Below, piece after piece: positions 4,327 through 42,167 of a stretch of DNA of 64,000 nt (positions are counted from its first letter, which is position 1; every line of letters begins with the position of its first letter). This stretch comes from a virus. Both the position numbers and the translations under genes were made by a program. Location of the stretch: the UHGV virus genome UHGV-0209617; one strand, 5' to 3'. The notes beneath the pieces are model-generated. The model searched no databases and was not told the DNA's origin. It saw only the letters and a list, made by a program, of their open reading frames with translations.

Positions 4327-4441
4327 TAAGGAGAGATGTTTTTAAGATAATAAGCTAGTAGGATGTGTAGAATACTATAAAATAGGTTAACGGATACATC
4401 GGTAAATAAAATTAAGGTTATATGTATGGTGGCCAGATGAT

Positions 4442-7392: not shown

Positions 7393-7959
7393 ATGCTTAA
7401 AAGAATATTCATAATGATTATCGTGTTGCAGGCATTTTTTATAGGGGTATGCTCTGCCAATTCGGGCAGATTAGCAGATATTGGAGCAGAAGTATTTAGA
7501 GGAAAAATGGTGGAGAGTACGAATTCTTTTGTGAGTGGATTAGAAATTAAAAAGCTATCAGGAGGAATGGCAAAGCTATATCCAGGAACAACATTATATA
7601 CATTTTTTATGTTTGATAATTTGAATACAGATAAAGTTGTCAGTGTTTCGGTATTTGTAAATCAAGAAGGTTATATTGATGCTATAGGCGTAGCTGGCTC
7701 AGGAGCAAGTGAAAGCAGTAGAGCGTTTTCGACAAATATTGTGGAAGAGTCTATGAGGGCTATTGGTTTAAGTAATGATGACATTAACTGCTTGACAACT
7801 AAAGGTATACAAGGGAAAAAATATCAAGGGGTAGTTTTTTCTGAAAATATGGGTAGAGACGTTTATTATACATTTTGGATGGGACCTAATGCTGTCCATT
7901 CAAGTATTATAGATAGAATGTCTTATACGAATAGGGGTAATTTGTTTAGAGCAAGTTAG
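7393..7959 (+). CDS. Secreted protein, paralog family member 2
   Basis: MLKRIFIMIIVLQAFFIGVCSANSGRLADIGAEVF...FVNQEGYIDAI...GRDVYY; conserved ~70-nt upstream leader shared with the copy at 3781. Confidence 0.7.
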   Translation: MLKRIFIMIIVLQAFFIGVCSANSGRLADIGAEVFRGKMVESTNSFVSGLEIKKLSGGMAKLYPGTTLYTFFMFDNLNTDKVVSVSVFVNQEGYIDAIGVAGSGASESSRAFSTNIVEESMRAIGLSNDDINCLTTKGIQGKKYQGVVFSENMGRDVYYTFWMGPNAVHSSIIDRMSYTNRGNLFRAS

Positions 7960-8060
7960 TAAAATATACACAAAATGTATGTCACGGCTATGTATAGCTT
8001 AAGGGAGATAGGTATAAAGAAATAAATTTTTGAGTATATTTATGTAAAGGGGAAGATGAT

Positions 8061-15349: not shown

Positions 15350-15353
15350 GTGA

Positions 15354-17024
15354 ATGGAGTGCATTGAAAGAATATTTTACAGAAAGATTAATCCTTCTGA
15401 TTTCAAAAAGTTGTATGATATTGACAAACCAGAAGGTGGCGGTGGTCAGACATACTTGGAAGCCGCTGGTATTTCAAATGAAAAAATCGTTGATTTCCTT
15501 TCCTATGCGGAGGTTACAAACAGTCCTTTGCCAGATGAAACAAGGTCTGTTTATACATTCAATGCCTATGTTTTGGGCGATTCAAAGGGTAAATGTTCGT
15601 TTGTAGAATTTGCACCTCGCAAAGGAAGAAATAACTATCGTATAAGCCGTCAGAACATGAAATATAAACATCCGGCATGGAGTTTGGATAATGGATTTCC
15701 CGAACCATCAAAAGGTGATGATGGCGAATACACATCTGCAGGCGATTTTGTGGGAATCATTGATAATCTTGTTATTCTTATCATAAGAACTACAAATCGG
15801 CGTTATTATGCAGGTTTTGTAAATATAGCGACAATGCCAGAGAACTGGCCACACAATATTGGCTTAGAGGGCATTTTTAGTGGTGAACGCAGAGATGTAC
15901 TAAAAATGGATGCGTATAAACTACAGTTTGTTAATGATGCCTGTAATCCATTCGGTGATTATGTCCCAACAATCGAAGAATGTAATCGAGCGACTACTGG
16001 TTGCAATGTGCTTTTGTACGGAGTTCCCGGAGCAGGAAAGAGTTGGACAATTGAACACGAATATTGTGCCGATGAAGGGTGTATGGAGCGATTGGTTTTC
16101 CATCCGGATTATATGTATTCGGATTTCGTTGGACAAATTTTGCCTGTAGTAAGGGACGATGACAAGGTTCGTTATGAGTTTACGCCGGGTCCGTTTACCA
16201 AATTATTAAAAAAAGCATATTGGAATACAGAACAGTCTTTTTACCTTATAATAGAAGAAATAAATCGTGGTAATGCACCAGCGATATTCGGTGAAATATT
16301 TCAGCTTTTGGATAGAAAAGATGAAGACGAAATAGATGAAAATAGGGAGATTCTCTACAAAAAAGGCACAAGTGAGTATGGAATAACAAATGCCAATATT
16401 GCACGAATCGTTTATGGCGATGAAAACCATAAGGTTCGAATTCCTGCAAATATGTCTATTTTGGGTACAATGAATACTTCTGACCAAAATGTTTTTACAT
16501 TAGACACAGCATTTCAGAGAAGATGGATTATGAGAATGATTCCGAATTCATTTGATAACCATAAGTTCGCAGACAAGAAGATTTTGGATACTGATATTTC
16601 CTGGAGACAGTTCTGTGAAGCAATTAATGAGGAAATTTTGCGTAGAAACAACATCACATCTTCTGAGGATAAGCGACTTGGGGCATATTTTATCTCGGCT
16701 TCGGATTTGGAGATGAAACCAATCACAGACGGGATGAGCGAAAAAGAAAAAATCCAAGTGGAGCATAGCAACAGCAGATTTGCAGAAAAAGTATTGAAAT
16801 ATTTATGGGATGATGCTTTCAAATTTTCCCATCAAGATACATTTAACACAAGACAGTTTGGTAGTCTTGAAAAAGTTATCGAAGGCTTTATGAATCCTGC
16901 CAAGCCTAAAAATGAGCGTTTTCGTGTATTCAATGAGAACCTTCGTAAAATGATTTTGGATGGAGTAACAGCAGAATCAAACGAGGTTTCTGATGATGAC
17001 AGCGAAGGCTCACAGGAATCTTAA
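15354..17024 (+). CDS. McrB-like AAA+ GTPase restriction subunit with an N-terminal domain of about 200 aa that I cannot assign
   Basis: LLYGVPGAGKSW (Walker A), LIIEEINRGNAPAIFGEIFQLLDR (McrB-type IDEINRAN-like motif), ILGTMNTSDQN (NTxD-type motif). Confidence 0.85.
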   Translation: MECIERIFYRKINPSDFKKLYDIDKPEGGGGQTYLEAAGISNEKIVDFLSYAEVTNSPLPDETRSVYTFNAYVLGDSKGKCSFVEFAPRKGRNNYRISRQNMKYKHPAWSLDNGFPEPSKGDDGEYTSAGDFVGIIDNLVILIIRTTNRRYYAGFVNIATMPENWPHNIGLEGIFSGERRDVLKMDAYKLQFVNDACNPFGDYVPTIEECNRATTGCNVLLYGVPGAGKSWTIEHEYCADEGCMERLVFHPDYMYSDFVGQILPVVRDDDKVRYEFTPGPFTKLLKKAYWNTEQSFYLIIEEINRGNAPAIFGEIFQLLDRKDEDEIDENREILYKKGTSEYGITNANIARIVYGDENHKVRIPANMSILGTMNTSDQNVFTLDTAFQRRWIMRMIPNSFDNHKFADKKILDTDISWRQFCEAINEEILRRNNITSSEDKRLGAYFISASDLEMKPITDGMSEKEKIQVEHSNSRFAEKVLKYLWDDAFKFSHQDTFNTRQFGSLEKVIEGFMNPAKPKNERFRVFNENLRKMILDGVTAESNEVSDDDSEGSQES

Positions 17025-17040
17025 AGCGAGGTGAGCGACA

Positions 17041-18321
17041 TTGGATTTAGGCTTAAACTTAAAAGTTAAATGTCATGTGAATAAAAATGGTGATGGCGAT
17101 AGGTTTGTCGGGATTAAGGCTGATGCTAATCAAGCAATGGTCTATTTTCCAATGGGGTATCGCCTGCCAGACAATGAAGAAGATATTAGGGATGATATTC
17201 TAAAATTGATTTCTGTATTAGCTGAGTTTACGGATTCAAAAGACAAGGTATTGGCTATGCAGAAATTTGAAGCACCACAGTCTGTGAATTTTCCAATCAA
17301 TGCCTATATGAATATTATCCGATACTATTTGGAACAACGTTCATATTACACAGAAAAGGATCCTATTCTAAAGACGAGTGACAGAGGAAAAATCGACTTT
17401 GCAGCATCTTTGCGTAGAAATGTTAGCTTTTTTCAAGAAGATGGAACTCCGTTTTTTGATAAATATACAGTAAAAGGGTCAACTCCTAATGATAAAAATT
17501 TAATAACTATGATTCACAAATACTGTGTGCATGAAAGTTTTGCTCAGATGGGTTGGCTGTTTATGCCGGATGTCCCACAAGATCCACATATTGAACGAAA
17601 CATTCCGCTTTTCCTCAGTGTACTGAAGAAAAAATTGGCAGTCACGCATCTTGAAAAGGATATTCTGCTATTTGAAGCAATGATTTCTATGCTGGAATAT
17701 TTGGATGAGAAAAGTGACGATAAACAATACTATTTTGGAACAGATAGATTTGAATATGTGTGGGAAAAACTGATAGATGCAGTGTTTGGCATAAAAGAAA
17801 AGAATGATTATTTTCCACGAACCTCTTGGAAACTAAACTATGGTGACCAACGAAGAAATTATGCATTAGAGCCGGACACCATAATGCTTTGTAATGGAAA
17901 AATCTATGTCATTGATGCAAAGTATTATAGATACGGTGTAACCGGTACACCTTCGCATTTGCCGGAATCATCATCTATCAACAAGCAGATTACATATGGT
18001 GAGTACATATATAATCATAAGAAATTTAAGGATGTATATGGTGATGATGTTCCTGTGTATAACGCATTCCTTATGCCGTATAACAAACAGGATAATCCAT
18101 TTCATATCAATGAGTATTTCGCCAATATTGGTGAGGCTGATAGTGACTGGAAATATGGCAATCATAATTATGAACGGGTGCAAGGAATTGTAGTTGATAT
18201 TCGTTTCTTGATGAACAATTACTATGGTTCGCACAAGAGTAAAATTATTAAGATGGCGAAGCTCATCGAGGAAGCCCTGCAGGAAAATGCAGATACGCTT
18301 CCAGAAGAAAAGACTGAATAA
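17041..18321 (+). CDS. McrC-like PD-(D/E)xK nuclease subunit (TTG start)
   Basis: ALEPDTIMLCNGKIYVIDAKYY gives PD...D-x-K; position immediately after the McrB-like gene; GAGGTGA 7 nt before the TTG. Confidence 0.75.
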   Translation: MDLGLNLKVKCHVNKNGDGDRFVGIKADANQAMVYFPMGYRLPDNEEDIRDDILKLISVLAEFTDSKDKVLAMQKFEAPQSVNFPINAYMNIIRYYLEQRSYYTEKDPILKTSDRGKIDFAASLRRNVSFFQEDGTPFFDKYTVKGSTPNDKNLITMIHKYCVHESFAQMGWLFMPDVPQDPHIERNIPLFLSVLKKKLAVTHLEKDILLFEAMISMLEYLDEKSDDKQYYFGTDRFEYVWEKLIDAVFGIKEKNDYFPRTSWKLNYGDQRRNYALEPDTIMLCNGKIYVIDAKYYRYGVTGTPSHLPESSSINKQITYGEYIYNHKKFKDVYGDDVPVYNAFLMPYNKQDNPFHINEYFANIGEADSDWKYGNHNYERVQGIVVDIRFLMNNYYGSHKSKIIKMAKLIEEALQENADTLPEEKTE

Positions 18322-18362
18322 AAAATCCGCAAGCAGTGATTATGCTGTTTGCGGATTTTTTA
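18321..18362. terminator. Bidirectional rho-independent terminator between the R-M operon and the convergent CGNR gene
   Basis: A-run, ATCCGCAAGCAG / CTGTTTGCGGAT stem, then TTTTTT. Confidence 0.65.
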
Positions 18363-19544
18363 TTTGCCCTTTTGAACTTTGATGCGATGGGAACGTTGAT
18401 TATTTGCGTTTCTACAGTTACTGCAACAATATTTATTTCTACTATTGGATGTCTTTACTAAGAAATATTTATGGCAAGAAGGATTGGCACACTTTCTATA
18501 TATTTCAGATCCGGGTTTCATGTAGAAAATAGAAAAATATAATGCAGAAAGCAATGATGGTGCCTTCCACGACGGTTCCAGTGAATTGGGACTGTAGAAA
18601 GGTTTTATACTTCTGGTATTATGATTTATTTCCCCACTTAAAACGAGTCGTGCGATAAGAGTAGCAGCCTCTTTTAATGGACTGTTAAATTTGCTGAAAT
18701 CTGGACTACTATAGTATTCAATGCCGCCCTCGAAAGTTACAGCTTTTATTACACCAACAGAATGCATATAGTGAAACAGGAATTCAACCATTAGTCGGAG
18801 CTTCTTGGATTGAATATTGTTATTCTTGTAAGCAATAGTAACCTGGCGATACAGCGTATCATTAATTCCAGGATAATCGTATGTAAATGTTTCTCCGTTT
18901 GAAATATCATCATATTCATCAGCATTTAATTCATATGAAGGAGCATAAATCATGTCTTTTACGGTAATAGATTCTGTTTCAGAGGATTGCTGTAGTGAAT
19001 CGATAGAGGCTTGATTTCTGATGCTATCATGAAATGGATGCCGATAGGTTGAATAAGTAATTCGTGCAGTGCCATTAAGCGTAACTTGTGTCCCAAGAAG
19101 CAAATACAAAGTTAAATGTAGAATCTGTTCATAATCAAGTGATGGTTTTTCCACTGCGGCCATAAGGAGAACTGTAGCCTTTATTCGATTCAAGACTTCT
19201 ACAAGCGCTACTATATCAATTTCCGTTCCTTCGGGCGAAATAGGAAGTAGATAACCATGTTCCTCGAAAAAACCAAGGACCTTTTTTACATTGGTTGCCG
19301 GAAGCGATATCAGAGAACCGAGAACATTTTTATTTTGAAGTGAACCGTGTGGAGTCGTTAAACATAAACCTCGGCTTCCGCTAAAGGCATAATTTATAAT
19401 TTCATCATTCACGGGATAGACTGTTAATATTTTATGCGCCTGCCCGTCCGTCTTTAAGACTTCTTCTATTCTAAATGTACATTTTTTGCAACTCAAAGAA
19501 AAATAATCGTTGCTAAGATTGAAAAAATTGTCTAACTCAGTCAT
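18360..19544 (-). CDS. Protein with C-terminal CGNR-type zinc finger; N-terminal ~340 aa unassigned
   Basis: C-terminus CANPSCHKYFLVKTSNSRNKYCCSNCRNANNQRSHRIK fits the CGNR zinc-finger pattern (C-x2-C ... C-x2-C-R). Confidence 0.65.
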   Translation of the reverse strand: MTELDNFFNLSNDYFSLSCKKCTFRIEEVLKTDGQAHKILTVYPVNDEIINYAFSGSRGLCLTTPHGSLQNKNVLGSLISLPATNVKKVLGFFEEHGYLLPISPEGTEIDIVALVEVLNRIKATVLLMAAVEKPSLDYEQILHLTLYLLLGTQVTLNGTARITYSTYRHPFHDSIRNQASIDSLQQSSETESITVKDMIYAPSYELNADEYDDISNGETFTYDYPGINDTLYRQVTIAYKNNNIQSKKLRLMVEFLFHYMHSVGVIKAVTFEGGIEYYSSPDFSKFNSPLKEAATLIARLVLSGEINHNTRSIKPFYSPNSLEPSWKAPSLLSALYFSIFYMKPGSEIYRKCANPSCHKYFLVKTSNSRNKYCCSNCRNANNQRSHRIKVQKGK

Positions 19545-19978
19545 AAAAAACTACTCCATATTTCCTTGCCCCTCGTAGAAGGGTCTTTTTTTATGTCGAA
19601 AAGTAAGTGATTACATAAGTAATAATGTAATTATAACGCTTACTATTGCTTGTTTCAAGCTAGTATAGTAATGAAATACACAGAAAGTAAGTGATTATAT
19701 CAGAAATTTACTTACTATACTGAAATTCTTATACTTAAAGACAGTGAAGGACAACCAAACTTTATATACAGCGGAGGTGTTTTTCACATCCCTGTTTCAA
19801 TGTTCATCGCCTGATCAGCGATGCCCAGAGCGGAGAAACGGACACAAGTAAATATCAGTCAACCCACTGGGACGGTTGGCCAGCTAAGAAATGAGGATTT
19901 CATTCTTATGGCCAATTATTATGGGAAGTTCAGTGTGGGTCCTCATTTCGGTTTTCAGACCGAAGGAGGGTCTACACG

Positions 19979-20488
19979 ATGGACAAATTTGAAAATCTAC
20001 AGACAAGCAACGAGAAGCAGTATTACATTCCTTTGGAAGTAACCGCAGAAACTATCAGAGATTTTGGCATCAACCCTAAAGATGTGGTATGGACGAGAAT
20101 CGGGAACAAGCCTAAAAAGGTTGTTATGATTCCCGTAACCGAGGAGCAGTACAAAACATTTATGCGTCCTCTGTGGCGTGAGGACAAGCGTCAGCAAAGA
20201 CAGGAGCCGATGGCATCGCTGGATAAGATGTACGAAAAAACCGAGTACGAAGCGGCTGATACCGACTCTGACCTTGAAGCGAATATTATGAAGAAAATGC
20301 TGATTGATGAGCTTCACAAGGCACTGGATGAACTGGAAGAAATCGACCGCACCATTATGAAGATGTACAGCAATAACCATAGCGAAGCCGAAATCGGACA
20401 GACTATCGGTATGAGCCAGAAGGGTGTTAATAAACGTAAGCACAAGGTGCTGCTGAAACTTAACACCAGATTGAAAGACTTCAGATAA
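19979..20488 (+). CDS. Sigma-70 region-4-like HTH protein (putative phage transcription factor)
   Basis: C-terminal EIGQTIGMSQKGVNKRKHKVLLKL HTH; GAAGGAGGG SD. Confidence 0.65.
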   Translation: MDKFENLQTSNEKQYYIPLEVTAETIRDFGINPKDVVWTRIGNKPKKVVMIPVTEEQYKTFMRPLWREDKRQQRQEPMASLDKMYEKTEYEAADTDSDLEANIMKKMLIDELHKALDELEEIDRTIMKMYSNNHSEAEIGQTIGMSQKGVNKRKHKVLLKLNTRLKDFR

Positions 20489-25157: not shown

Positions 25158-25506
25158 TGAAAGTCCAATCGGTTTGAGCATCTGTGAGAGGCTTGATTGG
25201 TTCTGTCAAATCCCAAAATGCAAGGAGAGCCGGATTTCTCTGACTCTCTCAAGTATGTATCCTTGAATACATACCCCAATTAGTGTCCATATTATACAGC
25301 TTCCGTTCGAAATATGCAAGACCTAAATGAAATTTTTCAAGGCAGACATTCGTGCTGATAAATCCGGATGAATGACGATTGCTGCTACTGCGGGATTGAC
25401 GGATATTTTATAGTCATCTGTGATTTTCTCAAATTCTCGAATGAAGGCCTTTATTTCGGTTTTGGCATATGTAGCAATTTTAAGAGCAAAAAAAGATTAA
25501 AAATAC

Positions 25507-31568: not shown

Positions 31569-31782
31569 AGGTATAGAAAATCTCCGTAATGCTATCATCC
31601 TTCAGGCAGTAAATGATTTGAAGAGAGCGTACAGAAACCTAAAGAGGAATCCAGACAGCGTACAGCTGAAGGCTGCTGCAGAATACGAGGAGAGGTTCTT
31701 CAGTTCCAAATGGTACAAGACCCTTACCACGATTGATGGCAGTATGGTGGTAGCCCATGTAAGAGAGGAGGCAGGCTTATGA
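31558..31782 (+). CDS. Hypothetical small phage protein (probable GTG start)
   Basis: ORF overlapping the SNF2 3' end; GGAGGTGA upstream. Confidence 0.45.
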   Translation: MSDKGIENLRNAIILQAVNDLKRAYRNLKRNPDSVQLKAAAEYEERFFSSKWYKTLTTIDGSMVVAHVREEAGL

Positions 31783-32222
31783 CAGCAAAAGAATACTTGA
31801 GTCAGGCATTCCTGCTGAACGAACAGATAAACACAAAGCTTGAGCAGGTCAGTGCCTTGAGGCATCTTGCCACAAAGACCTGCACACCTATAAACGATAT
31901 GCCGGGTTCTCCAACAAAGCGTGTTGATGGAATGGAGGAAACCATAATCAAGATGGTTACCTTAGAGAATGAAATCAATGCAGACATCGATAAGCTGGTG
32001 GATTTGAAGGTTGAAATAACACGGCTCATCAACAAGGTGAGCAAGGTTGAATGCAGACTGCTCCTGGAGAAAAGATATCTCTGCATGGAAGCATGGGAGG
32101 TTATAGCAGCGGGGCTTAATTACAACCTGAGGTATATCCACAAACTGCACAGCAAAGCATTATCTTCTTTTGATGAAGTCATGGCAGAATATAAAGTAGA
32201 CACCAAAGGGCACTATTTGTGA
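31779..32222 (+). CDS. Putative late-gene transcriptional activator (sigma-region-4-like HTH; ArpU/RinA-type position)
   Basis: Small protein just upstream of HNH, terS and terL with an HTH-like C-terminus. Confidence 0.5.
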   Translation: MTAKEYLSQAFLLNEQINTKLEQVSALRHLATKTCTPINDMPGSPTKRVDGMEETIIKMVTLENEINADIDKLVDLKVEITRLINKVSKVECRLLLEKRYLCMEAWEVIAAGLNYNLRYIHKLHSKALSSFDEVMAEYKVDTKGHYL

Positions 32223-32325
32223 CTGCCAAACTATAGTATAATGTAAACTGTGAAAAGAATATAATCATAGAGCCATTGGAGAGCAATCTTCGATGGCTTT
32301 TCTTATGCCCGAAAGAGGTGAAGCC

Positions 32326-32697
32326 ATGCCAAGGAAACCAAAGCGTCCCTGCAGATACAGCGGATGCCCGAAGCTGACAGAAGGATACTATTGCGATGAA
32401 CATCAGAAGCTAATGGACAGGCAGTACGATAAATACCGCCGCCCGGCTGAAGCCAAGAAAAGGTATGGCTATCAGTGGAGAAAGATAAGAGCTGCGGTAC
32501 TGGCAAGAGAGCCGTTCTGTCTGGAGTGCCGAAAGGCTGGAAGAATAACCAAGGCCACAGAGGTGCATCATGCTGTGCCATTAGACCACGGCGGTACCAA
32601 CGAGGATAGTAATTTGATACCGCTCTGCAAGCCGTGTCACTCCCGCATAACTGTGGAGATGGGGGATAGATGGCATAAGAAAAAGCTGCCCATATGA
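32326..32697 (+). CDS. HNH endonuclease (packaging-associated)
   Basis: CxxC...EVHHAVPLDHGG...CKPCH; AGGTGA SD. Confidence 0.8.
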   Translation: MPRKPKRPCRYSGCPKLTEGYYCDEHQKLMDRQYDKYRRPAEAKKRYGYQWRKIRAAVLAREPFCLECRKAGRITKATEVHHAVPLDHGGTNEDSNLIPLCKPCHSRITVEMGDRWHKKKLPI

Positions 32698-32778: not shown

Positions 32779-33060
32779 TTAAGCATCACCTAATACCTCG
32801 TTGCGTAATTCCTTGAATGAAGAATAACGTTTATACTTTTCCGGATTAGCTTTCATTGTATAGTATTCATTCATGGCATCGAGTGTTTCCGGATTAGGTA
32901 CTGAACGCTTGATGTCGAAGGGAATGCGCTGTTCACGAACAGCCTGCCGAAGGAATATTGTGACAGCTGTAGTCAAATCCATACCAAGGTCTGAAAAAAG
33001 ACTTTGTGCATTGAGCTTCAACTGAGGGTCTAATGCTATGTTTGTACTTACTTTAGCCAT
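32779..33060 (-). CDS. RelB/DinJ-family antitoxin-like protein with no adjacent toxin gene
   Basis: MAKVSTNIALDPQLKLNAQSLFSDLGMDLTTAVTIFLRQAVREQRIPFDI matches the RelB/DinJ fold; strong SD AGGAGGTG; opposite strand to all neighbours. Confidence 0.7.
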   Translation of the reverse strand: MAKVSTNIALDPQLKLNAQSLFSDLGMDLTTAVTIFLRQAVREQRIPFDIKRSVPNPETLDAMNEYYTMKANPEKYKRYSSFKELRNEVLGDA

Positions 33061-33252: not shown

Positions 33253-33804
33253 TTGCCAACAAAATCCAACAACACCGGCGGCCGTGGAGGTAAAAGACTA
33301 GGTGCCGGACGCAAGAAAAAAGCACTGGCAGACAAGCTGGAAACAAATAATCCAGGTGGCCGCCCGCTGGTGGTTTTAGACATACCAGAATTTGAAGGAA
33401 TGGATATGCCACCGCCCAGGGAATTTCTATCCGCCCAGCAGCGTGATGGAAGTGACCTGCAAGCAAATGAGATATATGAGGAAACATGGGAGTGGCTGAA
33501 GAAAATCGGCATGGCAGGAAAGGTAAGCAAGCAGCTTCTTGAACGCTATGCAATGTGCGCTGCCCGCTGGGTGCAGTGCGAGGAAATGACCAGCCGAATG
33601 GGTATGCTTTCTAAGCACCCTACAACGGGAAAACCTATCCCAAGTCCATTCATAAACATCGGGATAAACTACATGAATCAGGCTAACAGGCTGTGGGGAG
33701 AAATCTTCCAGCTTGTTAAGGAGAACTGCTCGACAGGCTATGAGGGAGCCAATCCAACAGACGATGTGATGGAGCGGCTGCTCAGAGCAAGGAGCGGAAG
33801 GTAA
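33253..33804 (+). CDS. Phage terminase small subunit (P27-like), TTG start
   Basis: Basic glycine-rich N-terminus NTGGRGGKRLGAGRKKK and position before terL; GGAGGAG SD. Confidence 0.75.
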   Translation: MPTKSNNTGGRGGKRLGAGRKKKALADKLETNNPGGRPLVVLDIPEFEGMDMPPPREFLSAQQRDGSDLQANEIYEETWEWLKKIGMAGKVSKQLLERYAMCAARWVQCEEMTSRMGMLSKHPTTGKPIPSPFINIGINYMNQANRLWGEIFQLVKENCSTGYEGANPTDDVMERLLRARSGR

Positions 33805-33849: not shown

Positions 33850-35127
33850 ATGGCGAATACAGAACGATTTGAAAAAGTACATATAGACAAGCTGGTGCCC
33901 TATGCCAGAAATGCCAGGACACACAGCAAGGAGCAGGTCATGGAACTGAGAGCGTCCTTAAGGGAGTTCGGATTCGTTACTCCCGTCCTGGTAGATGAAA
34001 ACTATACAATCCTCGCGGGGCACGGACGTGTCAGGGCTGCAAAGGAAGAAGGCATTACCGAGGTGCCATGTGTATTTGCGAACCAGCTGACGGATGCACA
34101 GAAGAAAGCCTATATCCTAGCAGATAACCGTCTTGCGCTTAATGCGGGATGGGATAACGAGATGCTGGCAGTTGAACTGGCTGATCTGCAGGGCGAGGCT
34201 TTTGATATCGGCCTTTTGGGATTTGATGACAAGGAGCTGGAGAAGCTCCTTGGCAATAACGATGAGGCAGAGGATGATGATTTCGATGTTGATGCCGAAC
34301 TTCAAAAACCATGCTTCAGCCGCCCAGGAGATATCTGGAAACTCGGCAGGCACAAGGTTATCTGTGGTGACAGCACTGACCCGAATGTTTACACTTCTCT
34401 TCTTGGAGATGTGAAAGTAAACCTAGTCTGCACTGACCCGCCGTATTTTGTAGCCTTCGAGAATAAATCAGGGAAAATCCAGAATGACAATCTGGGTGAT
34501 GAGGAAGGATATAAATTCCTCAAATCCGCTATGGATAATTTCCATAATGCTATGGCAAAGGATGCCAGCATTTATGTGTTTTATGCTACATCCAAAGCCA
34601 GGGTATTCCATGATGCTTTTGAGGATGCAGGGTTTAAGGTTGGAGCAGGACTTGTCTGGAAGAAGGATCGCCTGGTGCTGACCCGCACGGATTGGAAGTA
34701 CATCCATGAGCCAATTATCTTCGGCTGGCGTAAGGACGGAAAGCATATCTGGTACGGAGATCAGAAGCAGACTACTGTATTTGAGTTTTCCCGTATCAAG
34801 GATTCTGGCAAGGATGGATACGGTCATCCTACCAGCAAGCCTGTACCTCTCATTGCTTATCTCATTAAGCAGTGCACCCAGACTAACGGTATTGTGCTGG
34901 ATGGCTTCTTGGGTTCTGCCAGCACCCTTATTGCCTGTGAGCAGCTTGAAAGAAACTGTTATGGCGTAGAGCTTGAGCCGAAGTTCGTGGATGTGGCTGT
35001 AAACAGATACATCGCAGCCCATGATGGCTCCGCCCAGGATGTTGTCCTTATCCGAGATGGAAAAGAATACAGCTACGAAGAGTCCCAAGCGATGATGGAG
35101 GATAGTGCTGAAAATGACGAACAATAA
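33850..35127 (+). CDS. ParB-like nuclease domain fused to a DNA methyltransferase (N6-adenine or N4-cytosine)
   Basis: N-terminal ParB-N pattern (VPYARNARTHSKEQV...GHGRVRAAKEEG); C-terminal LVCTDPPYF and HPTSKPVPL methyltransferase motifs. Confidence 0.85.
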   Translation: MANTERFEKVHIDKLVPYARNARTHSKEQVMELRASLREFGFVTPVLVDENYTILAGHGRVRAAKEEGITEVPCVFANQLTDAQKKAYILADNRLALNAGWDNEMLAVELADLQGEAFDIGLLGFDDKELEKLLGNNDEAEDDDFDVDAELQKPCFSRPGDIWKLGRHKVICGDSTDPNVYTSLLGDVKVNLVCTDPPYFVAFENKSGKIQNDNLGDEEGYKFLKSAMDNFHNAMAKDASIYVFYATSKARVFHDAFEDAGFKVGAGLVWKKDRLVLTRTDWKYIHEPIIFGWRKDGKHIWYGDQKQTTVFEFSRIKDSGKDGYGHPTSKPVPLIAYLIKQCTQTNGIVLDGFLGSASTLIACEQLERNCYGVELEPKFVDVAVNRYIAAHDGSAQDVVLIRDGKEYSYEESQAMMEDSAENDEQ

Positions 35128-35246
35128 CGGAGTCGATACTTTAATCGTTTAAAGTCGAGCCACTAGCTGGTGTGAAAGTCAAAGTATACAGTATCTTCTG
35201 CCCTAAGAGAGAAAAAGCCGCCCGCAGGCGGCAGGGAGAAGATGAG

Positions 35247-35420
35247 TTATTCTCCGTAGAGAATGAACTTCACATAAGCGGCACGGTCTTCCTCAATGAA
35301 GCATACCAGCTCGTAGTAGTGGCTTTCAAAGGCCAGCCGCTGTACATAATTGGTATCAAGCATATTGGTCTTGCCGGTGTCCCTGATTGCCAGAATCTGT
35401 TCCTTGATTTTCTCTGTCAT
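35247..35420 (-). CDS. DUF5049-like small protein
   Basis: MTEKIKEQILAIRDTGKTNMLDTNYVQRLAFESHYYELVCFIEEDRAAYVKFILYGE; SD AAAGGAGG on the minus strand. Confidence 0.65.
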   Translation of the reverse strand: MTEKIKEQILAIRDTGKTNMLDTNYVQRLAFESHYYELVCFIEEDRAAYVKFILYGE

Positions 35421-35596
35421 TGAAATGACCTCCTTTGTTTTTGGTATGTACATATATCACTCTAAAGAGGACAAATAGCAAGTCATTTCTTTGGAATATG
35501 TAATAAATATTTTTACAAAAAATATCTACAAAACCCTTGCTATTACTGGCGTTTAGAGTGATTAATGTAGTACCGAAATTAAAGGAGGCAAACAAA

Positions 35597-36298
35597 ATGA
35601 TTTACAAGCTGAAAATGGAAAACGGCACCCGCAAGGAGCTGGCAAAGGAAATCGGAAAGATTATCGCCCAGGAAGCAAAGTACATGGGAGTTCCAAGCTG
35701 CGGCTACAGGATCGGGGACATGGTCTTGGATAAGGATTGGAACCTTGAGGTTCCGGATGGCATGGATGCGCGGGAGCTTCTGATGGCACTAACAGACCTT
35801 GGCTTCTACGAGCCGAAGGAAGAAATACCCGCAAAGACAGAAGAAGAGCCAACACAGGCGGCCACAGCCCCTCTTACGGGTCTTGTGGTAAAGATTCCGC
35901 TGAGTGCCATGACCACGGAAGCAATCATAAACCTTACGGATTTGCTTATCGCAAAGGACAAGCTGCTCTGCCACGCATTTGGCATAGAAAGCCTTGACCT
36001 TATCCGAAACGAGGAGAACATAGAGTTCAGATGGTTTGAAGGGATGGATATCGGAGCGGAGGAAGCCAATGCTTACATGACCTTTATTTCCAAGCTCTGC
36101 GATTTGGCAAGAACCCTCAAGAGGGTAAACGGTAAGGAAAAAGAAGTGCCGAATGAGAAATACGCCTTCAGATGTTTCCTGCTGAGACTTGGCTTTGTCG
36201 GCAAGGAATACAAGGAGCAGAGAAAAATCCTTTTAAGTAAGCTCAGCGGTTCATCCGCATTCAGGGATGGGAGGAAAAAAGATGAAGTATCCGAATAA
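35597..36298 (+). CDS. Protein whose C-terminal ~100 aa are homologous to the C-terminal region of the adjacent amidoligase; lacks the amidoligase N-terminal catalytic part
   Basis: IEFRWFEGMDIGAEEANAYMTF...NEKYAFRCFLLRLGFVGKEYKEQRKILLSKLSGSSAFR versus VEFRLFNSTLHAGELKAYIQF...[38 protein letters not shown]. Confidence 0.7.
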   Translation: MIYKLKMENGTRKELAKEIGKIIAQEAKYMGVPSCGYRIGDMVLDKDWNLEVPDGMDARELLMALTDLGFYEPKEEIPAKTEEEPTQAATAPLTGLVVKIPLSAMTTEAIINLTDLLIAKDKLLCHAFGIESLDLIRNEENIEFRWFEGMDIGAEEANAYMTFISKLCDLARTLKRVNGKEKEVPNEKYAFRCFLLRLGFVGKEYKEQRKILLSKLSGSSAFRDGRKKDEVSE

Positions 36299-36500
36299 GG
36301 AATTGCTGGAAAGTCTCAGAAAGGAATACCCAAATGGGTGCAGGGTGGAGCTGGTGCAGATGGATGATGCACAGGCACCGCCGCCCGGCACGAAGGGAAC
36401 GGTAAAGCACGTGGATGATATCGGCACCATCCATATCAGCTGGGATACCGGCTCAGGACTTGGGGCGGTTTACGGTGAAGATATCATCAGAAAGGTCTAA
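36282..36500 (+). CDS. DUF4314-like small phage protein
   Basis: MKYPNKELLESLRKEYPNGCRVELVQMDD...GTKGTVKHVDDIGTIHISWDTGSGLGAVYGEDIIRKV. Confidence 0.6.
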   Translation: MKYPNKELLESLRKEYPNGCRVELVQMDDAQAPPPGTKGTVKHVDDIGTIHISWDTGSGLGAVYGEDIIRKV

Positions 36501-36575
36501 TGGAAAGGCGGGGATAAAACCCCGCCAGCCCAGTAAAATAGTGTAAAAATAATCCATAAATCTCGCATAAATGAC

Positions 36576-36604
36576 TTGATAATAATACAGATGTACGGTA
36601 ATAT
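36576..36604 (+). promoter_or_regulatory. Near-consensus sigma-A promoter (TTGATA, 17 bp, TAATAT) upstream of the amidoligase gene
   Basis: Hexamers and spacing read directly; the same architecture and flanking sequence recur at 38144-38172. Confidence 0.6.
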
Positions 36605-36653
36605 ACACACAACAAAAGGGAACACCCCACCAAGAGAAAGCGAGGAAAACAAA

Positions 36654-37541
36654 ATGGATTTAAGAGCACAGACCTTCGGAGTAGAGATTGAGATGACCGG
36701 CCTTACAAGAAACAGGGCCGCAAAGGTAATCGCCGCATACTTCGGAACGGAGGCAACCTACTTCGGAGGCGGATACGATGAGCACCACGCAAAGGACAGC
36801 AAGGGCAGAATCTGGAAGGCCATGAGCGATTCAAGCATCAGGGCAGAAAAGAAGGACGGCTCCTACGCAAGCGACCTTTACAAGACCGAGGTGGTAACCC
36901 CAATCCTCAGATACGAGGACATTGAAGACCTACAGGAAATCCTGAGAAAGCTCAGAAAGGCAGGGGCGATGGTAAACAGCAGCACAGGGATTCACATCCA
37001 CATCGGAGCGGAGAATTTCACCCCGGCTACCCTTTGCAACCTTCTGAAGAACATCCGAAGCAAGGAGGACATTCTTTACAGAGCCATTCAGGTCAAGGAA
37101 AACCGCGCAAGGTACTGCAGAAAAACAAACCAGAAGCTCATCGAGATGATTGAGGCACACCGCCCCAAGACAAAGGAGCAGCTTGCAGACCTTTGGTATG
37201 CAGAAGCACCATACGGAAGAAACAGGCATTACAACGACAGCAGATACCACGGACTTAACCTCCACGCATACTTCACTAAGGGAACGGTCGAGTTCAGGCT
37301 TTTCAACAGCACCCTCCACGCAGGCGAATTGAAAGCCTACATACAGTTCTGCATGGCGGTTACAGCAAAGGCCATAAACACCAAGAAGGCAAGCGCGAAG
37401 CCAAGCATCAGCGACAACGAAAAATACACTTTCAGATGCTGGCTCCTCCGCCTGGGCCTTAACGGAGAAGAATTCAAGACCTGCAGAACCCACCTTTTGA
37501 AGCACCTCGAAGGAAACAGCGCCTGGAGGCACCTTTCCTAA
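36654..37541 (+). CDS. Amidoligase-family enzyme (phage-associated amidoligase)
   Basis: N-terminal FGVEIEMTG and overall pattern consistent with the Amidoligase_2 family; GGCT-like gene follows. Confidence 0.7.
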   Translation: MDLRAQTFGVEIEMTGLTRNRAAKVIAAYFGTEATYFGGGYDEHHAKDSKGRIWKAMSDSSIRAEKKDGSYASDLYKTEVVTPILRYEDIEDLQEILRKLRKAGAMVNSSTGIHIHIGAENFTPATLCNLLKNIRSKEDILYRAIQVKENRARYCRKTNQKLIEMIEAHRPKTKEQLADLWYAEAPYGRNRHYNDSRYHGLNLHAYFTKGTVEFRLFNSTLHAGELKAYIQFCMAVTAKAINTKKASAKPSISDNEKYTFRCWLLRLGLNGEEFKTCRTHLLKHLEGNSAWRHLS

Positions 37542-37638
37542 AACAAACCGGCCTACCAGCCCCGAAAGGGGCCTTTCGGTGGTAGAAGCACCTAGCTTCT
37601 GAATAAACCGATTTGCTTTAGGAAGGGAGTCTTCAACA

Positions 37639-38097
37639 ATGAAAAGAAAAATCTATCTGGCCTACGGAAGCAACATGAGCCTTTTGCAGATGTACCACCG
37701 TTGCCCTGATGCAGAACCGATTGGCAAGGGCATCATCAAGGATTACCGCCTGATGTTTAAGGGAAGTAAGAGTGGCAACTATGCGACCATCGAATACGAG
37801 GAAGGACGGCAGGTGCCTGTGGTAGCCTGGGCAATCAGTGAAAGGGATGAAAAATGCCTTGACCGCTATGAAGGATTTCCGAGCTTTTATGTGAAGGACA
37901 CCATCGCATTTGAATATATCGGTGATCGCCCAGGAAGAAGGATGAAGGATGAGGGCATGGTTTATGTGATGCCGCCAGATGAGACTGTTCTGGGGCTTCC
38001 AAGTGGTCACTACATGGATGTCCTTCTTGAAGGCTACCATCGCTTCGGATTTAATTCCAGAATCCTTTGGGAAGCCTACGAATACAGCGATGAGTGA
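37639..38097 (+). CDS. Gamma-glutamylcyclotransferase-like (GGCT/AIG2-like) protein
   Basis: N-terminal YLAYGSNMS motif typical of the GGCT fold; GGAAGGGAG SD. Confidence 0.75.
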   Translation: MKRKIYLAYGSNMSLLQMYHRCPDAEPIGKGIIKDYRLMFKGSKSGNYATIEYEEGRQVPVVAWAISERDEKCLDRYEGFPSFYVKDTIAFEYIGDRPGRRMKDEGMVYVMPPDETVLGLPSGHYMDVLLEGYHRFGFNSRILWEAYEYSDE

Positions 38098-38143
38098 GCC
38101 GATAAAGTATACAAAAATATCCTCCGAATGTGTGAAGTATAAC

Positions 38144-38172
38144 TTGATATAAGTACGAATGTACGGTAATAT
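38144..38172 (+). promoter_or_regulatory. Second copy of the TTGATA-17-TAATAT promoter, upstream of an unlisted small ORF
   Basis: Identical -35 and -10 and near-identical spacer and downstream sequence (GTACGGTAATATACACACAAC) to the copy at 36576. Confidence 0.6.
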
Positions 38173-38220
38173 ACACACAACGAAAGGGGAACAGCCCTAA
38201 AGCAAAAGGAGGAAACCACA

Positions 38221-38400
38221 ATGACAAAGAAGGAAAGCGCAAGGATTTTAGAGATTGCAAAGAAGTACATTTACGCAATCGAAGTGAGAGGGAGCCTTGA
38301 GATGATGCAGTCCGACAGCGATGACTTCATCGAAACCTCGGTCGGCAGCATCGAGGCAGCCCTTGAAGCGGCCTACAGAGCAGGCAAGGCCGCAAGATAA
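38221..38400 (+). CDS. Small protein (59 aa), just below the ORF-track length cutoff
   Basis: ATG preceded by AAAGGAGGAAACCACA; MTKKESARILEIAKKYIYAIEVRGSLEMMQSDSDDFIETSVGSIEAALEAAYRAGKAAR; its own promoter upstream and hairpin downstream. Confidence 0.55.
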   Translation: MTKKESARILEIAKKYIYAIEVRGSLEMMQSDSDDFIETSVGSIEAALEAAYRAGKAAR

Positions 38401-38562
38401 CAAAGAAAAGCCGGAAGGACCTCGGAAGGGGGCCTTTTGGTCGTGGTAGCATAAATAGACTTTACAAGTTCCCAACTACACCATGTTAAAGTATCGGCTC
38501 CGATGGGAGCTTCATATCTAACCGCCTCTGGGCGGATTTTTTTATGTCTGGAAGTGAGAGAA

Positions 38563-40170
38563 ATGGCAATAAGGAAACTGAAAAAATACATACCGACAAA
38601 ATTCATGTCTGAAGACAGCCATTATGATAAGGGGGCGGCTGACTATGCCGTAGCATTTATTGAAGCCTTATGCCATACCAAGGGAACTTGGGCAGGTAAG
38701 CCTTTTGAGCTAATCGATTGGCAGGAACAGATTATTCGTGACCTTTTTGGTATCCTAAAGCCAAATGGATATAGGCAGTTTAATACAGCCTATGTTGAAA
38801 TACCCAAAAAGCAAGGAAAATCTGAGCTGGCAGCGGCCGTTGCAATCCTTTTAACCTGCGGTGATGGTGAGGAACGTGCGGAGGTTTATGGCTGTGCTGC
38901 AGACCGGCAACAGGCATCCATTGTTTTTGATGTTGCTGCGGATATGGTCAGTATGTGTCCTGCTTTAGCCAAGCGCGTAAAAATACAGAAATCTATGAAG
39001 CGCATGATATATCTTCCTACGAACAGCTTCTACCAGGTGCTTTCGGCAGAGGCCTATTCAAAGCATGGCTTCAATATCCATGGTGTTATCTTTGATGAGC
39101 TTCATACCCAGCCAGACCGCAAGCTGTATGATGTAATGACCAAAGGCTCCGGCGATGCAAGAATGCAGCCGATGTATTTTAATATAACTACAGCAGGGAC
39201 GGATACTCATTCCATATGCTACGAAATACATCAGAAGGCAAAGGATATTATTGCTGGGCGGAAGATTGATACAACCTTCTATCCTGTGATTTATGGTGCG
39301 GATGAAGGAGAGGATTGGACTTCTCCAGAAGTGTGGAAGAAGGCAAATCCGTCTCTTGGCATTACTGTTGGCATGGATAAGGTTGAAGTTGCTTGTGAGT
39401 CTGCAAGGCAGAATCCAGGGGAAGAAAATGCTTTTCGCCAACTTCGTCTTAACCAATGGGTAAAGCAGTCGGTTCGTTGGATGCCTATGGAAAAATGGGA
39501 TGAGTGCAGCTTCAAAGTTAACCCTGATGACCTAGAAGGACGCGTATGCTATGGAGGTCTTGACCTATCCAGCACCACAGATATAACAGCCTTTGTATTG
39601 GTGTTTCCTCCGGAGGATGAGGAGGATAAATATCATATACTGCCTTATTTCTGGATACCGGAGGAAACAATGGATCTTCGTGTAAAGCGTGACCATGTGC
39701 CCTATGATATCTGGCATAAGCAGGGATTCCTTGAAACCACCGAAGGCAATGTAGTCCACTATGGCTACATCGAGAAATTCATTGAATCCCTCGGTGAAAA
39801 ATATAATATCCGTGAGATTGCCTTTGATAGATGGGGTGCGACACAGATGGTGCAGAATCTTGAGGGCATGGGATTTACTGTTGTTCCCTTTGGACAAGGT
39901 TACAAGGATATGAGTCCGCCAACCAAGGAGCTGATGAAGCTGACCCTTGAAAAGAAACTGGCTCATGGCGGTCATCCAGTTCTGAGGTGGATGGCAGACA
40001 ATATCTTCATCCGAAGGGATCCCGCTGGGAACATCAAGGCAGACAAAGAAAAGTCCACAGAGAAGATTGACGGTGTCATAGCCACCATAATGGGGCTGGA
40101 CAGAGCAATTCGCTGTGGATTGAATTCTGGAGATTCCGTTTATGATGGGCGAGGAATTTTGTTAATATAA
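38563..40170 (+). CDS. Phage terminase large subunit (intact)
   Basis: 536-aa ORF; nuclease-domain C-terminus matches the fragments at 1-267 and 986-1203; preceded by CCGCC/GGCGG hairpin plus T-run at 38523-38543. Confidence 0.9.
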   Translation: MAIRKLKKYIPTKFMSEDSHYDKGAADYAVAFIEALCHTKGTWAGKPFELIDWQEQIIRDLFGILKPNGYRQFNTAYVEIPKKQGKSELAAAVAILLTCGDGEERAEVYGCAADRQQASIVFDVAADMVSMCPALAKRVKIQKSMKRMIYLPTNSFYQVLSAEAYSKHGFNIHGVIFDELHTQPDRKLYDVMTKGSGDARMQPMYFNITTAGTDTHSICYEIHQKAKDIIAGRKIDTTFYPVIYGADEGEDWTSPEVWKKANPSLGITVGMDKVEVACESARQNPGEENAFRQLRLNQWVKQSVRWMPMEKWDECSFKVNPDDLEGRVCYGGLDLSSTTDITAFVLVFPPEDEEDKYHILPYFWIPEETMDLRVKRDHVPYDIWHKQGFLETTEGNVVHYGYIEKFIESLGEKYNIREIAFDRWGATQMVQNLEGMGFTVVPFGQGYKDMSPPTKELMKLTLEKKLAHGGHPVLRWMADNIFIRRDPAGNIKADKEKSTEKIDGVIATIMGLDRAIRCGLNSGDSVYDGRGILLI

Positions 40171-40178
40171 ATTATAGG

Positions 40179-40207
40179 TTGAATATATCCTAGAGATGGT
40201 ATATAAT
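40179..40207 (+). promoter_or_regulatory. Promoter candidate for Phd-Doc (TTGAAT, 17 bp, TATAAT)
   Basis: Hexamers and spacing read directly. Confidence 0.5.
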
Positions 40208-40230
40208 AGCCATGAAAGGAGATGATACCT

Positions 40231-40473
40231 ATGATGGTTGATACTAATAATCTTGTTTCAATAACTGAGGCAAACCAGAATTTTTCAAAGGTCGCTCGTA
40301 TGGTAGATGAGTCAGGTTCTGTTGTAATCCTAAAAAATAATGTACCTAAATATTTAGTAGTTAATTTTGATGTGGCTGATAGCGTGGATTATACTTCAGA
40401 TGAAGAGCTGCTCATGGTATCAGATAAATTTATGAAGAAAAATAAAAAGGCGTATGAGGTATTGGCAAAATGA
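40231..40473 (+). CDS. phd: Phd/YefM-family antitoxin
   Basis: VSITEANQNFSKVARMVDESGSVVILKNNVPKYLVV; stop overlaps the Doc start (ATGA). Confidence 0.8.
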   Translation: MMVDTNNLVSITEANQNFSKVARMVDESGSVVILKNNVPKYLVVNFDVADSVDYTSDEELLMVSDKFMKKNKKAYEVLAK

Positions 40474-40844
40474 AGCGAATATCTAAACGTCAGGTATTAT
40501 TGCTGCATAATAAGCTGATAGAGGAAAGTGGCGGCTCTGATGGTATCAGGGAAGATGGACTCTTGGAATCAGCTTTGAATGCGCCTTACCATGAGTTTGC
40601 AGGTTTTTCAAACTATCCCACGATAGAAGAAAAAGCTGCCAGGCTCGGTTATGGTATAATCAAGAACCATCCATTTGTTGATGGGAATAAAAGAATTGGT
40701 ACCCATATTATGCTTCTGCTTTTGTATATCAATGGTGTTGAGTTGGTATATGAACAGGAGGAGCTGATAGACATAATTCTACAAGTTGCATCAGGACAAG
40801 CTGATTATGAAGAGTTATATGCTTGGGTTTTAGATCATGAATAA
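40470..40844 (+). CDS. doc: Doc (death-on-curing) Fic-family toxin
   Basis: Fic motif HPFVDGNKRIG. Confidence 0.85.
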   Translation: MKRISKRQVLLLHNKLIEESGGSDGIREDGLLESALNAPYHEFAGFSNYPTIEEKAARLGYGIIKNHPFVDGNKRIGTHIMLLLLYINGVELVYEQEELIDIILQVASGQADYEELYAWVLDHE

Positions 40845-40889
40845 CAAGGGTGTTGCCGTAATGGTAACGCCTATTTTTATGGAGGAAAA

Positions 40890-42167
40890 ATGAATATATT
40901 TACAAAACTTTTCAAGTCGAGGGATAAGCCGACCAACTATCTGGGCGGTTTATCCTTTTTATTTGGTCAGACTGCAGCCGGTAAGCCGGTTAATGAGAAG
41001 TCTGCCATGCAGGTAACAGCAGTTTATGCCTGTGTCAGAATTTTGGCAGAATCCATAGCAGGGCTGCCGCTTCATGTGTATAGGTACAATTCGGGTGGCG
41101 GCAAGGAAATGGTGACAGACCATAATCTGTACCGCATCCTGCATGATGAGCCTAATCCGGATATGACAAGCTTCATATTTAGGGAAACACTGATGAGCCA
41201 TCTTCTCTTGTGGGGTAATGCCTATGCACAGATTATTCGTGATCATGCTGGCAGGATGATAGGGCTGTATCCTTTACTTCCAGATAAGGTAGAGGTAGAT
41301 AGGGACAGCAGCACCGGTGAAATCTTCTATACCTATACCAAAAGCACAGACGAAAATCCGAACTTCAAGCAGGGCGGACAGATAAGGCTTAACAAGAATG
41401 CTGTACTTCATATTCCAGGTCTTGGCTTTGATGGACTTGTAGGATATAGTCCTATTGCCATGGCGAAAAATGCTGTAGGTATTGCTCTTGCCACCGAAGA
41501 ATATGGTGCTACCTTCTTTGCTAACGGTGCAACACCGGGCGGTATCTTAGAGCACCCTGGTGTGGTAAAAGACCCAGAACGTCTACGTCAGAGCTGGCAG
41601 AGTCAGTTTGGGCAGAAGAACAGCCACAGGGTAGCTGTGCTGGAAGAAGGCATGACCTTTCACCAGATGACCATACCGCCAGAAGAAGCACAGTTCCTGG
41701 AAACAAGGAAGTTTCAGATTGATGAGATTGCCCGTATTTTCAGGGTACCGCCACACATGGTAGGTGACCTTGAAAAATCCAGCTTCTCTAATATTGAGCA
41801 GCAGAGCCTTGAGTTTGTGAAATACACACTGAACCCTTGGGTTATCCGCTGGGAGCAGGCCCTTCAGAAAGCACTCCTTACAGATAAGGAAAAGGGCGAG
41901 TATTTCGTAAAGTTCAACGTGGATGGACTTCTCCGTGGTGACTACCAGAGCCGTATGAACGGCTACGCCATTGGGCGGCAGAATGGCTGGTTTTCAGCCA
42001 ATGACATCAGGGAAATGGAGAACCTAAATCCAATACCTGATGAAGAAGGTGGAAATCTCTATCTTATTAATGGCAATATGACAAAATTAAAGGATGCTGG
42101 CCTTTTTGCCGGTCAGCAGAAAGGAAAAGAAAATGAAGAGAAAGTTTTGGAACTGGGTGCGAAATGA
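40890..42167 (+). CDS. Phage portal protein (HK97-like)
   Basis: 425 aa; position after terL; homolog of the fragment at 1721-2212. Confidence 0.85.
   Translation: MNIFTKLFKSRDKPTNYLGGLSFLFGQTAAGKPVNEKSAMQVTAVYACVRILAESIAGLPLHVYRYNSGGGKEMVTDHNLYRILHDEPNPDMTSFIFRETLMSHLLLWGNAYAQIIRDHAGRMIGLYPLLPDKVEVDRDSSTGEIFYTYTKSTDENPNFKQGGQIRLNKNAVLHIPGLGFDGLVGYSPIAMAKNAVGIALATEEYGATFFANGATPGGILEHPGVVKDPERLRQSWQSQFGQKNSHRVAVLEEGMTFHQMTIPPEEAQFLETRKFQIDEIARIFRVPPHMVGDLEKSSFSNIEQQSLEFVKYTLNPWVIRWEQALQKALLTDKEKGEYFVKFNVDGLLRGDYQSRMNGYAIGRQNGWFSANDIREMENLNPIPDEEGGNLYLINGNMTKLKDAGLFAGQQKGKENEEKVLELGAK

Follow-up and report, generated by a model that had tools for sequence, protein, structure and literature searches.

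In T4-type phages, ORFans are flanked by PeSL (promoter-early stem-loop) cassettes, in which a conserved early promoter is combined with a stem-loop, and recombination between PeSLs gives insertions, deletions, replacements and mini-circles (PMC2839356, PMC4122927). Illegitimate recombination is held to be the route by which lambdoid phages (Juhala/Hendrix) gain morons, each of which brings unrelated signals of its own (PMC2839356). Here, we analyzed a stretch of 64,000 nt (the window) of the viral genome UHGV-0209617, in which similar promoter-like sequences with a 5' leader precede an amidoligase gene, followed by a gamma-glutamyl cyclotransferase gene (GGCT), and a 59-aa open reading frame (ORF) of the DUF6900 family. 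A hairpin is found downstream of the amidoligase gene (H1) and another downstream of the DUF6900 gene (H2). The anti-CRISPR (acr-aca) loci of Pseudomonas and other phages carry variable small ORFs behind a conserved promoter, at a fixed position and beside conserved genes. In our reading, it is probable that four paralogous promoter-leaders split the accessory region of this phage and that one of them heads a socket in which the ORF is exchanged.

The accessory region resembles the PeSL cassettes (Arbiol et al. 2010; Comeau et al. 2014) in its repeated and conserved promoters of predicted sigma-70 type, its small non-essential ORFs and its plasticity. In the promoters described here, A-rich positions upstream of the -35 hexamer are partly conserved, and the hexamers match 7-9 of the 12 consensus positions. 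Furthermore, the breakpoints of insertions, deletions and replacements between close relatives lie in conserved regulatory sequences, and one of the copies is chimeric, as recombination between copies predicts. The copies are also clustered, with four in 3.4 kb here and three to six in the relatives, and 39 ORF families occupy the slot between GGCT and terL when 66 loci are compared. However, promoter and stem-loop do not form a composite element: no GC-rich stem-loop is found in or next to the four promoters, and the hairpins are located at gene 3' ends, hundreds of bases from the next promoter, with none between GGCT and the promoter of the DUF6900 gene. The locus also differs from PeSL in belonging to a temperate siphovirus of Firmicutes instead of a lytic T4-like myovirus, in having four copies instead of dozens, and in hexamers that are conserved but non-consensus.

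A previous sequence-only reading of this DNA had described two near-consensus promoters, each formed by TTGATA, 17 nt and TAATAT, upstream of the amidoligase gene and of the 59-aa ORF. Both are present at these sites (Table 1), and they are part of a longer direct repeat of 50 nt, copies 1 and 2, with 86% identity. It had also described about 20 identical nucleotides downstream of the promoters. An identical 23-mer, ATGTACGGTAATATACACACAAC, is indeed found at 36591 and 38159, but this run overlaps the -10 hexamer and does not lie downstream of it. The term near-consensus could not be maintained, as the hexamers match nine of 12 positions, the same as several chance sites in the region. In a generic promoter scan, 15 sites reached 9/12 compared with 13.8 expected from shuffled sequence, which is what would be seen if the resemblance were due to chance or to functionless low-complexity AT-rich sequence. 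This explanation, to which we give practically no credit, was refuted by three results: none of 100 shuffles gave any match to the 23-mer, dozens of independent viral contigs share the conserved motif, and all its matches in related loci precede a gene.

Related loci are denoted by L-numbers. A set of 80 IMG/VR loci was fetched for their amidoligase homologues, and 37 of the 80 were inspected for the upstream motif; most of these 37 showed a related motif upstream of the amidoligase gene. The promoter family was defined with an iterated nhmmer profile (consensus ATAACTTGCTATTTACCCCTTTCAGAGGTAATATGTACACAACCAAAGG), which gave 109 matches in the fetched loci. All 109 are followed, 14-44 nt downstream on the same strand, by a Shine-Dalgarno sequence and an ORF of at least 40 aa, compared with 23% of random positions. 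The same profile found four matches in the window, all within 35.4-38.2 kb (next best match, E > 1), and thus all inside the 3.4-kb accessory region that extends from the ParB-methyltransferase gene to terL. Copies 1 and 2 are located 49-50 nt upstream of the start codons of the amidoligase and DUF6900 genes. The third copy is on the minus strand upstream of the DUF5049 gene, and this gene and its promoter are inverted in the window relative to most relatives. The fourth copy is weaker and divergent from the third; it is part of an inverted repeat and is supported by its position and by orthologues in L011, L012, L023 and L026. Copy 1 apparently drives both the amidoligase gene and GGCT, and copy 2 is predicted to drive DUF6900. 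As had been proposed, the two sites have the appearance of genuine promoters, each at the head of its own transcription unit.

Orthologues of copy 1 precede the amidoligase gene in L010, L011 and L022-26, and close relatives carry three to six family copies per 9 kb. A 16-mer of the promoter core is found twice in L003, 1,547 nt apart and each time before an unrelated small ORF, and also upstream of the amidoligase gene in an Anaerovibrio genome and in a Veillonellaceae metagenome-assembled genome (MAG). Scanning of IMG/VR gave no match with the exact promoter 22-mer and nine loci with the core 16-mer, about half of them in the same promoter context and the remainder by chance. A search of the plasmid database gave a single and irrelevant match, and BLAST of the 63-nt promoter against phage records gave weak matches only. 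Among annotated phages, the best matches are gut phages of the 'Ca. Heliusvirales', a lineage described as predominantly temperate (PMC11283538).

Hexamer and spacer statistics were obtained from 83 non-redundant promoter copies. The spacer is 17 nt long in 79 of them. The -35 hexamer is TTGCTA in 32 copies, TGGATA in 21, TGGCTA in 13, TTGATA in 10 and TTGACA in three, and the -10 hexamer is TAATAT in 53 and GATATA in 17. The general form of the motif is T(T/G)G(C/A)TA, 17 nt and TAATAT, with conserved flanks: the -35 is preceded by AAC, and the -10 is preceded by AGAG and followed by GTACAC or ACACAC. Judged by eye, sigma-54 and extracytoplasmic function (ECF)-type geometries were rejected, since the spacings do not fit. 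By its sequence, the motif is the anatomy of a promoter with sigma-A geometry, whose non-consensus bases appear to be under selection.

These bases also raise the possibility that a dedicated phage factor (sigma factor, late activator or repressor) recognises the 49-nt motif and that the array is a timed lytic regulon, for example of immediate-early counter-defence genes. The non-consensus bases are strictly kept across hosts, with TAATAT or a shifted form as -10, TATAAT in none of the 83 copies and TTGACA in so few, and the flanks AGAG and GTACAC/ACACAC around the -10 are kept as well. In addition, copies within a genome are more alike than same-position copies elsewhere (the pair in L003, and copies 1 and 2 of the window), and the phage has genes for both a sigma-like protein (19979-20488) and a phrog_36 regulator (31779-32222). 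However, a homologue of the sigma-like protein is found in one other Heliusvirales record only, whereas the promoter family is widespread; none of the family copies in the window precedes terS, portal or another structural gene; and both hexamers, with their 17-nt spacer, agree with sigma-A geometry. On balance we regard a dedicated factor as doubtful. The sigma-like ORF was rejected as the recognising factor, as it does not co-occur with the promoter family, and a late-activator promoter was rejected, as the phrog_36 regulator gene is not followed by a family copy and neither the HNH endonuclease gene nor terS is preceded by one.

Several related arrays also show a palindromic box, (A)AGTATAC(T), with 7-11 occurrences per ~9 kb compared with about one expected. 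It was seen in L012, L022-L025 and L029 and is absent from L026, L010, L009 and L021. The box is often located just past a stop codon, with a family promoter 13-38 nt further downstream. In the window, two of the three AAGTATAC sites are in the array, at 35182-35189 and 38105-38112.

The 59-aa ORF, which did not appear in the ORF list of the sequence-only reading, is a real gene: it matches Pfam DUF6900 with E 9.4e-17 and has the Shine-Dalgarno sequence AAGGAGG. It is unchanged in at least 24 metagenome contigs, and near-identical phage copies added no variation. The window and L101 have in common promoter 2, a near-identical leader (ACAAC.AAAGGGGAACAGCCC.AAAGCAAAAGGAGGAA) and a near-identical H2, but the interval from start to stop contains DUF6900 in the window and an unrelated 76-aa ORF in L101. 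The slot of L026 contains an 82-aa ORF, also unrelated to DUF6900, and that of L022-25 contains two promoter-ORF units. In L011 there is no slot cassette, and GGCT is directly followed by H2 and terL. Comparison of the window with L101, L022, L026 and L011 shows that homology is lost at 38236, about 15 nt inside the ORF, and is regained at 38394, about 6 nt short of the stop codon. Of the units, only that of DUF6900 is exchangeable, and the breakpoints coincide with the start and stop codons or lie close to them. The locus is similar to acr-aca loci in its variable small ORFs, conserved promoter and fixed genomic position, but no conserved helix-turn-helix (aca-like) regulator gene was found in the array by Pfam, and DUF6900 showed no known homology to anti-defence proteins.

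Copy 2 is itself a mosaic, with a core of amidoligase type from the -35 to the -10 and a leader of slot type. Its spacer and -10 do not differ from those of copy 1 and have 90% identity to the L011 amidoligase promoter, and its leader resembles the slot promoters of L101, L012 and L022.

Gene order is the same in about 66 related loci, with the methyltransferase, amidoligase, GGCT and terL genes on one strand; TerL identity to the window is 59-84% in these loci, with two exceptions. Since this synteny is kept, amidoligase and GGCT are best regarded, on comparative grounds, as a core module of the Heliusvirales-like lineage and not as recent cargo. In most of the relatives, terL is immediately preceded by a 158-aa ORF, putatively terS by its size and position, which places the array upstream of the packaging genes. 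The array is located between terS and terL only in the subgroup of the window, and the statement that the units are inside a late operon is thus valid for this subgroup but not for most relatives.

The sequence-only reading had suggested modular acquisition of both units and possible expression from the lysogen. Both would then be classical morons, independently acquired as promoter-gene-terminator cargo and expressed constitutively from the prophage to the benefit of the lysogen. The DUF6900 unit has features of a lambdoid moron: this small gene has a predicted promoter of its own, a hairpin follows it, and the genes on either side of it are direct neighbours in L011, where it is absent. Furthermore, PHROGs lists GGCT under 'moron, auxiliary metabolic gene and host takeover', and other moron-like units are located nearby, such as Phd/Doc with a 10/12 promoter at 40179. 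Modular acquisition stands for DUF6900, which is missing in L011 and replaced by unrelated ORFs in L101, L026 and L022, but not for the amidoligase unit, as amidoligase and GGCT occupy the same place in the ~66 loci and do not show the presence and absence expected of a moron. In addition, the promoter belongs to a phage-lineage family and is not a generic host-like one, H1 is intra-operonic, and H2 belongs to the array instead of DUF6900. Unlike in lambdoid morons, the signals here are constant and lineage-specific, and only the ORF changes. A lineage-specific promoter with conserved non-consensus hexamers gives no particular support to constitutive prophage expression. We therefore find it unlikely that both units are morons.

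The similarity proposed for the two hairpins was confirmed, with 22 of 27 positions common to both regions; none of 300 shuffles reached 22 and the maximum was 19. Nevertheless, they do not frame two units, as had been suggested, since H1 lies within the amidoligase-GGCT operon and the array as a whole ends in H2. On the plus strand, stable folding is predicted for both, and on the minus strand H2 does not fold; the H2 stem has a free energy of -19 kcal/mol and a z of -2.6. The hairpins are RNA-strand-specific, as their G-U pairs permit folding on the plus strand only. An array of exchangeable ORFs with a structured element on the 3' side is reminiscent of integron cassettes, but here an integrase is absent, every unit carries a promoter of its own and the hairpins are not attC-like. 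Rfam 15 gave no relevant match when the whole window was searched at gathering score and 35.1-38.7 kb at E up to 10; in the latter interval none reached gathering score, and the sole matches, with E > 3, were spurious.

H1, whose GCCCC-GAAA-GGGGC stem is followed by CUUUCGGU, is found downstream of the amidoligase gene in at least 10 distinct loci, with compensatory changes in the stem (GCCCC/GGGGC, GGCGG/CCGCC and GGCGGC/GCCGCC) and loops that are GNRA, UUCG or pentaloops. These changes were read directly from the sequences, as MAFFT and RNAalifold misaligned the stems and recovered six pairs only. The H1 tail GGTGGTAG is invariant in all 10 distinct loci, whose amidoligase proteins are down to ~51% identical. 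A peptide ORF starting in this tail was rejected, as it has only seven codons in the window. H2 closes the array in six distinct loci, with 13 predicted pairs, loops GGAA, UUCG or GGCA, and an invariant run, CTTTTGGTCGT. Its conservation after different ORFs, and immediately after GGCT in L011, assigns it to the array. H2 is a putative terminator with a four-U tract, and H1 may be a weak attenuator or a 3'-end stabiliser and would set the ratio of amidoligase to GGCT. A third structure, a canonical intrinsic terminator with an all-GC stem of five pairs, was called by the terminator scan; it is located before terL and has equivalents in L011, L012 and L025. Late transcription must therefore read through this terminator or start from the array promoters, which hints at antitermination.

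The whole array is enclosed by an inverted repeat, whose arms match at 16 of 17 positions in the window (94% complementary). In L012 the arms are 92 nt long (1100-1191 and 4237-4328), and in L024/L029 they are 26 nt long (L024, 1854-1879 and 6484-6509). Variation in the arms is parallel on both sides, with CTCCG in the window and CCCCG in relatives. These repeats would fit an array that is a discrete mobile or invertible element, with promoters and hairpins as its parts, and DNA invertases are common in the order Heliusvirales (PMC11283538). However, no array in inverted orientation relative to the methyltransferase gene and terL was seen in the ~66 loci that contain all three, no recombinase gene was found inside the array by Pfam and PHROGs annotation, and the inverted repeat is missing in more distant relatives. 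An invertible segment was rejected on account of the constant orientation, and a mobile element of this kind is very improbable.

The explanation we favour is that the repeats are paralogous copies of a lineage-specific promoter of sigma-A type with its 5' leader. The four copies would head four units: DUF5049 (leftward), the amidoligase paralogue with DUF4314, amidoligase with GGCT, and DUF6900. Amidoligase and GGCT would form an old conserved operon whose promoter is the ancestral copy, within which H1 would be a weak but conserved attenuator or a stabiliser of the 3' end, and H2 would be a terminator-like closure of the array. The position between GGCT and H2 would be a socket, with a constant promoter-leader on one side and a constant hairpin on the other, in which small ORFs are swapped through homologous recombination in the constant flanks. 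Copy 2 would itself be recombinant, with its amidoligase-type core and slot-type leader. The slot replacement, the mosaic copy 2 and the inverted DUF5049 are the traces expected if recombination between regulatory sequences exchanges units. Both recognition by the host sigma-A and recombination as the exchange mechanism are what we infer from these comparisons.

Several points weigh against this explanation. Promoter and terminator activities are predictions from sequence. The distance of the hexamers from the sigma-70 consensus (7-9/12, with TATAAT in 0/83) and the conserved AGAG and GTACAC on either side of the -10 could indicate a dedicated factor instead of plain sigma-A. In more distant relatives, the slot ORFs do not have a family promoter of their own. 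The U-tracts of H1 and H2 are short and interrupted, and a terminator scan called neither, while the invariant tails (GGTGGTAG after H1 and CTTTTGGTCGT in H2) suggest an unexplained sequence-specific function. Finally, a socket does not explain the inverted repeat that encloses the array. A more far-reaching proposal combines some of these points: the non-consensus promoter with its AGAG and GTACAC flanks, the leader and H2 would be a dedicated expression socket across an order-level lineage of gut phages, served by a lineage-specific factor, in which small counter-defence or host-takeover ORFs are swapped by recombination, start codon through stop codon, beside a universally kept amidoligase-GGCT operon. 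We regard it as unlikely.

Table 1. Positions in the window of the promoter-leader copies, hairpins, inverted repeat and genes of the region.
Feature	Position	Strand	Remarks
terS	33253-33804	+	
ParB-N6/N4 methyltransferase	33850-35127	+	
Inverted repeat, left arm	35128-35144		Right after methyltransferase stop
DUF5049 gene	35247-35420	-	+ strand in most relatives
Third family copy	35438-35486	-	Predicted to drive DUF5049; profile E 1.4e-9
Fourth family copy, weaker	35536-35569	+	Predicted to drive amidoligase paralogue and DUF4314; profile E 0.24
Amidoligase paralogue, 233 aa, phrog_2443	35597-36298	+	No Pfam match
DUF4314 gene	36267-36500	+	
Promoter-leader copy 1	36571-36620	+	-35 TTGATA 36576-36581; -10 TAATAT 36599-36604; profile E 4e-9
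Amidoligase_2 gene	36654-37541	+	Predicted lineage-core module
H1	37553-37588	+	GCCCC-GAAA-GGGGC inside CUACCA/UGGUAG; tail GGTGGTAG 37578-37585
GGCT, gamma-glutamyl cyclotransferase (GGACT)	37639-38097	+	Without own promoter
Promoter-leader copy 2	38139-38188	+	-35 38144-38149; -10 38167-38172; profile E 5e-11
DUF6900 gene, 59 aa	38221-38400	+	Predicted exchangeable cargo of variable slot
H2	38410-38441	+	13-position stem, GGAA loop; 3' arm runs into UUUUGGUCGU
Inverted repeat, right arm	38486-38502		Just before terL terminator
Canonical intrinsic terminator	38522-38543	+	CCGCCTCTGGGCGG plus T7; stem 38522-38535; 20 nt before terL start
terL	38563-40170	+	
Phd/Doc module	40222-40844	+	
Portal	40890-42167	+	

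The terS and terL genes are 4.7 kb apart, with the methyltransferase gene and the accessory array between them. The 233-aa ORF matches phrog_2443 with E 1.6e-49 and has the C-terminal motif NEKY.FRC.LLRLG in common with the amidoligase; as a paralogue that shares this motif, it may be an inactive or partner subunit. Between terL and portal, a Phd/Doc(Fic) toxin-antitoxin pair (40179-40872) with its own 10/12 promoter (40179-40207) and terminator (40848-40872) forms a textbook moron. Elsewhere, this slot contains a family promoter and a 106-aa ORF (L025) or a PAPS reductase (NatCom_11393). In the terL of the Veillonellaceae MAG (L011), there is an apparent insertion at ~7690-8000, soon after the ATPase P-loop region, which may be an intein or a homing-endonuclease insert.

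Upstream of terS, the phrog_36 transcriptional regulator (147 aa, 31779-32222, E 7e-18, with a weak DUF1492 match) is encoded just upstream of the HNH endonuclease gene and terS, the usual site of a late activator of RinA/ArpU type. A RelB-like antitoxin gene (32779-33054, minus strand) is located between the HNH endonuclease gene (32293-32697) and terS, with no toxin partner identified. Further to the left, the window shows an abiF RNA (RF03085) at 25164-25200 on the minus strand, and a DUF2800 RNA motif (Rfam RF02960, 81.8 bits) followed by the 169-aa sigma-70/ECF-like protein, the two together at 19792-20488. It also shows a 394-aa minus-strand ORF without family match (18360-19544) and, just left of the probable prophage end, an LlaJI-type restriction-modification cluster (12643-18321) with two methyltransferases, an AAA protein and the LlaJI endonuclease.

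Few phages of Firmicutes in the human gut are as widespread as the prophages of Heliusvirales type. The 2024 Heliusvirales paper does not contain the word 'promoter', and the two lineage-defining papers do not discuss regulatory sequences. Conserved across many hosts, the 49-nt promoter-leader is a marker for the accessory region, and the promoter family gives a handle on the regulation of the conserved and uncharacterised amidoligase-GGCT operon. The slot provides a defined place in which to find small genes that are exchanged, and such genes are candidates for a role in counter-defence or in benefit to the lysogen. Our results would extend the T4 PeSL idea, in which regulatory sequences act as recombination linkers, to temperate siphoviruses, an extension that is useful rather than surprising.

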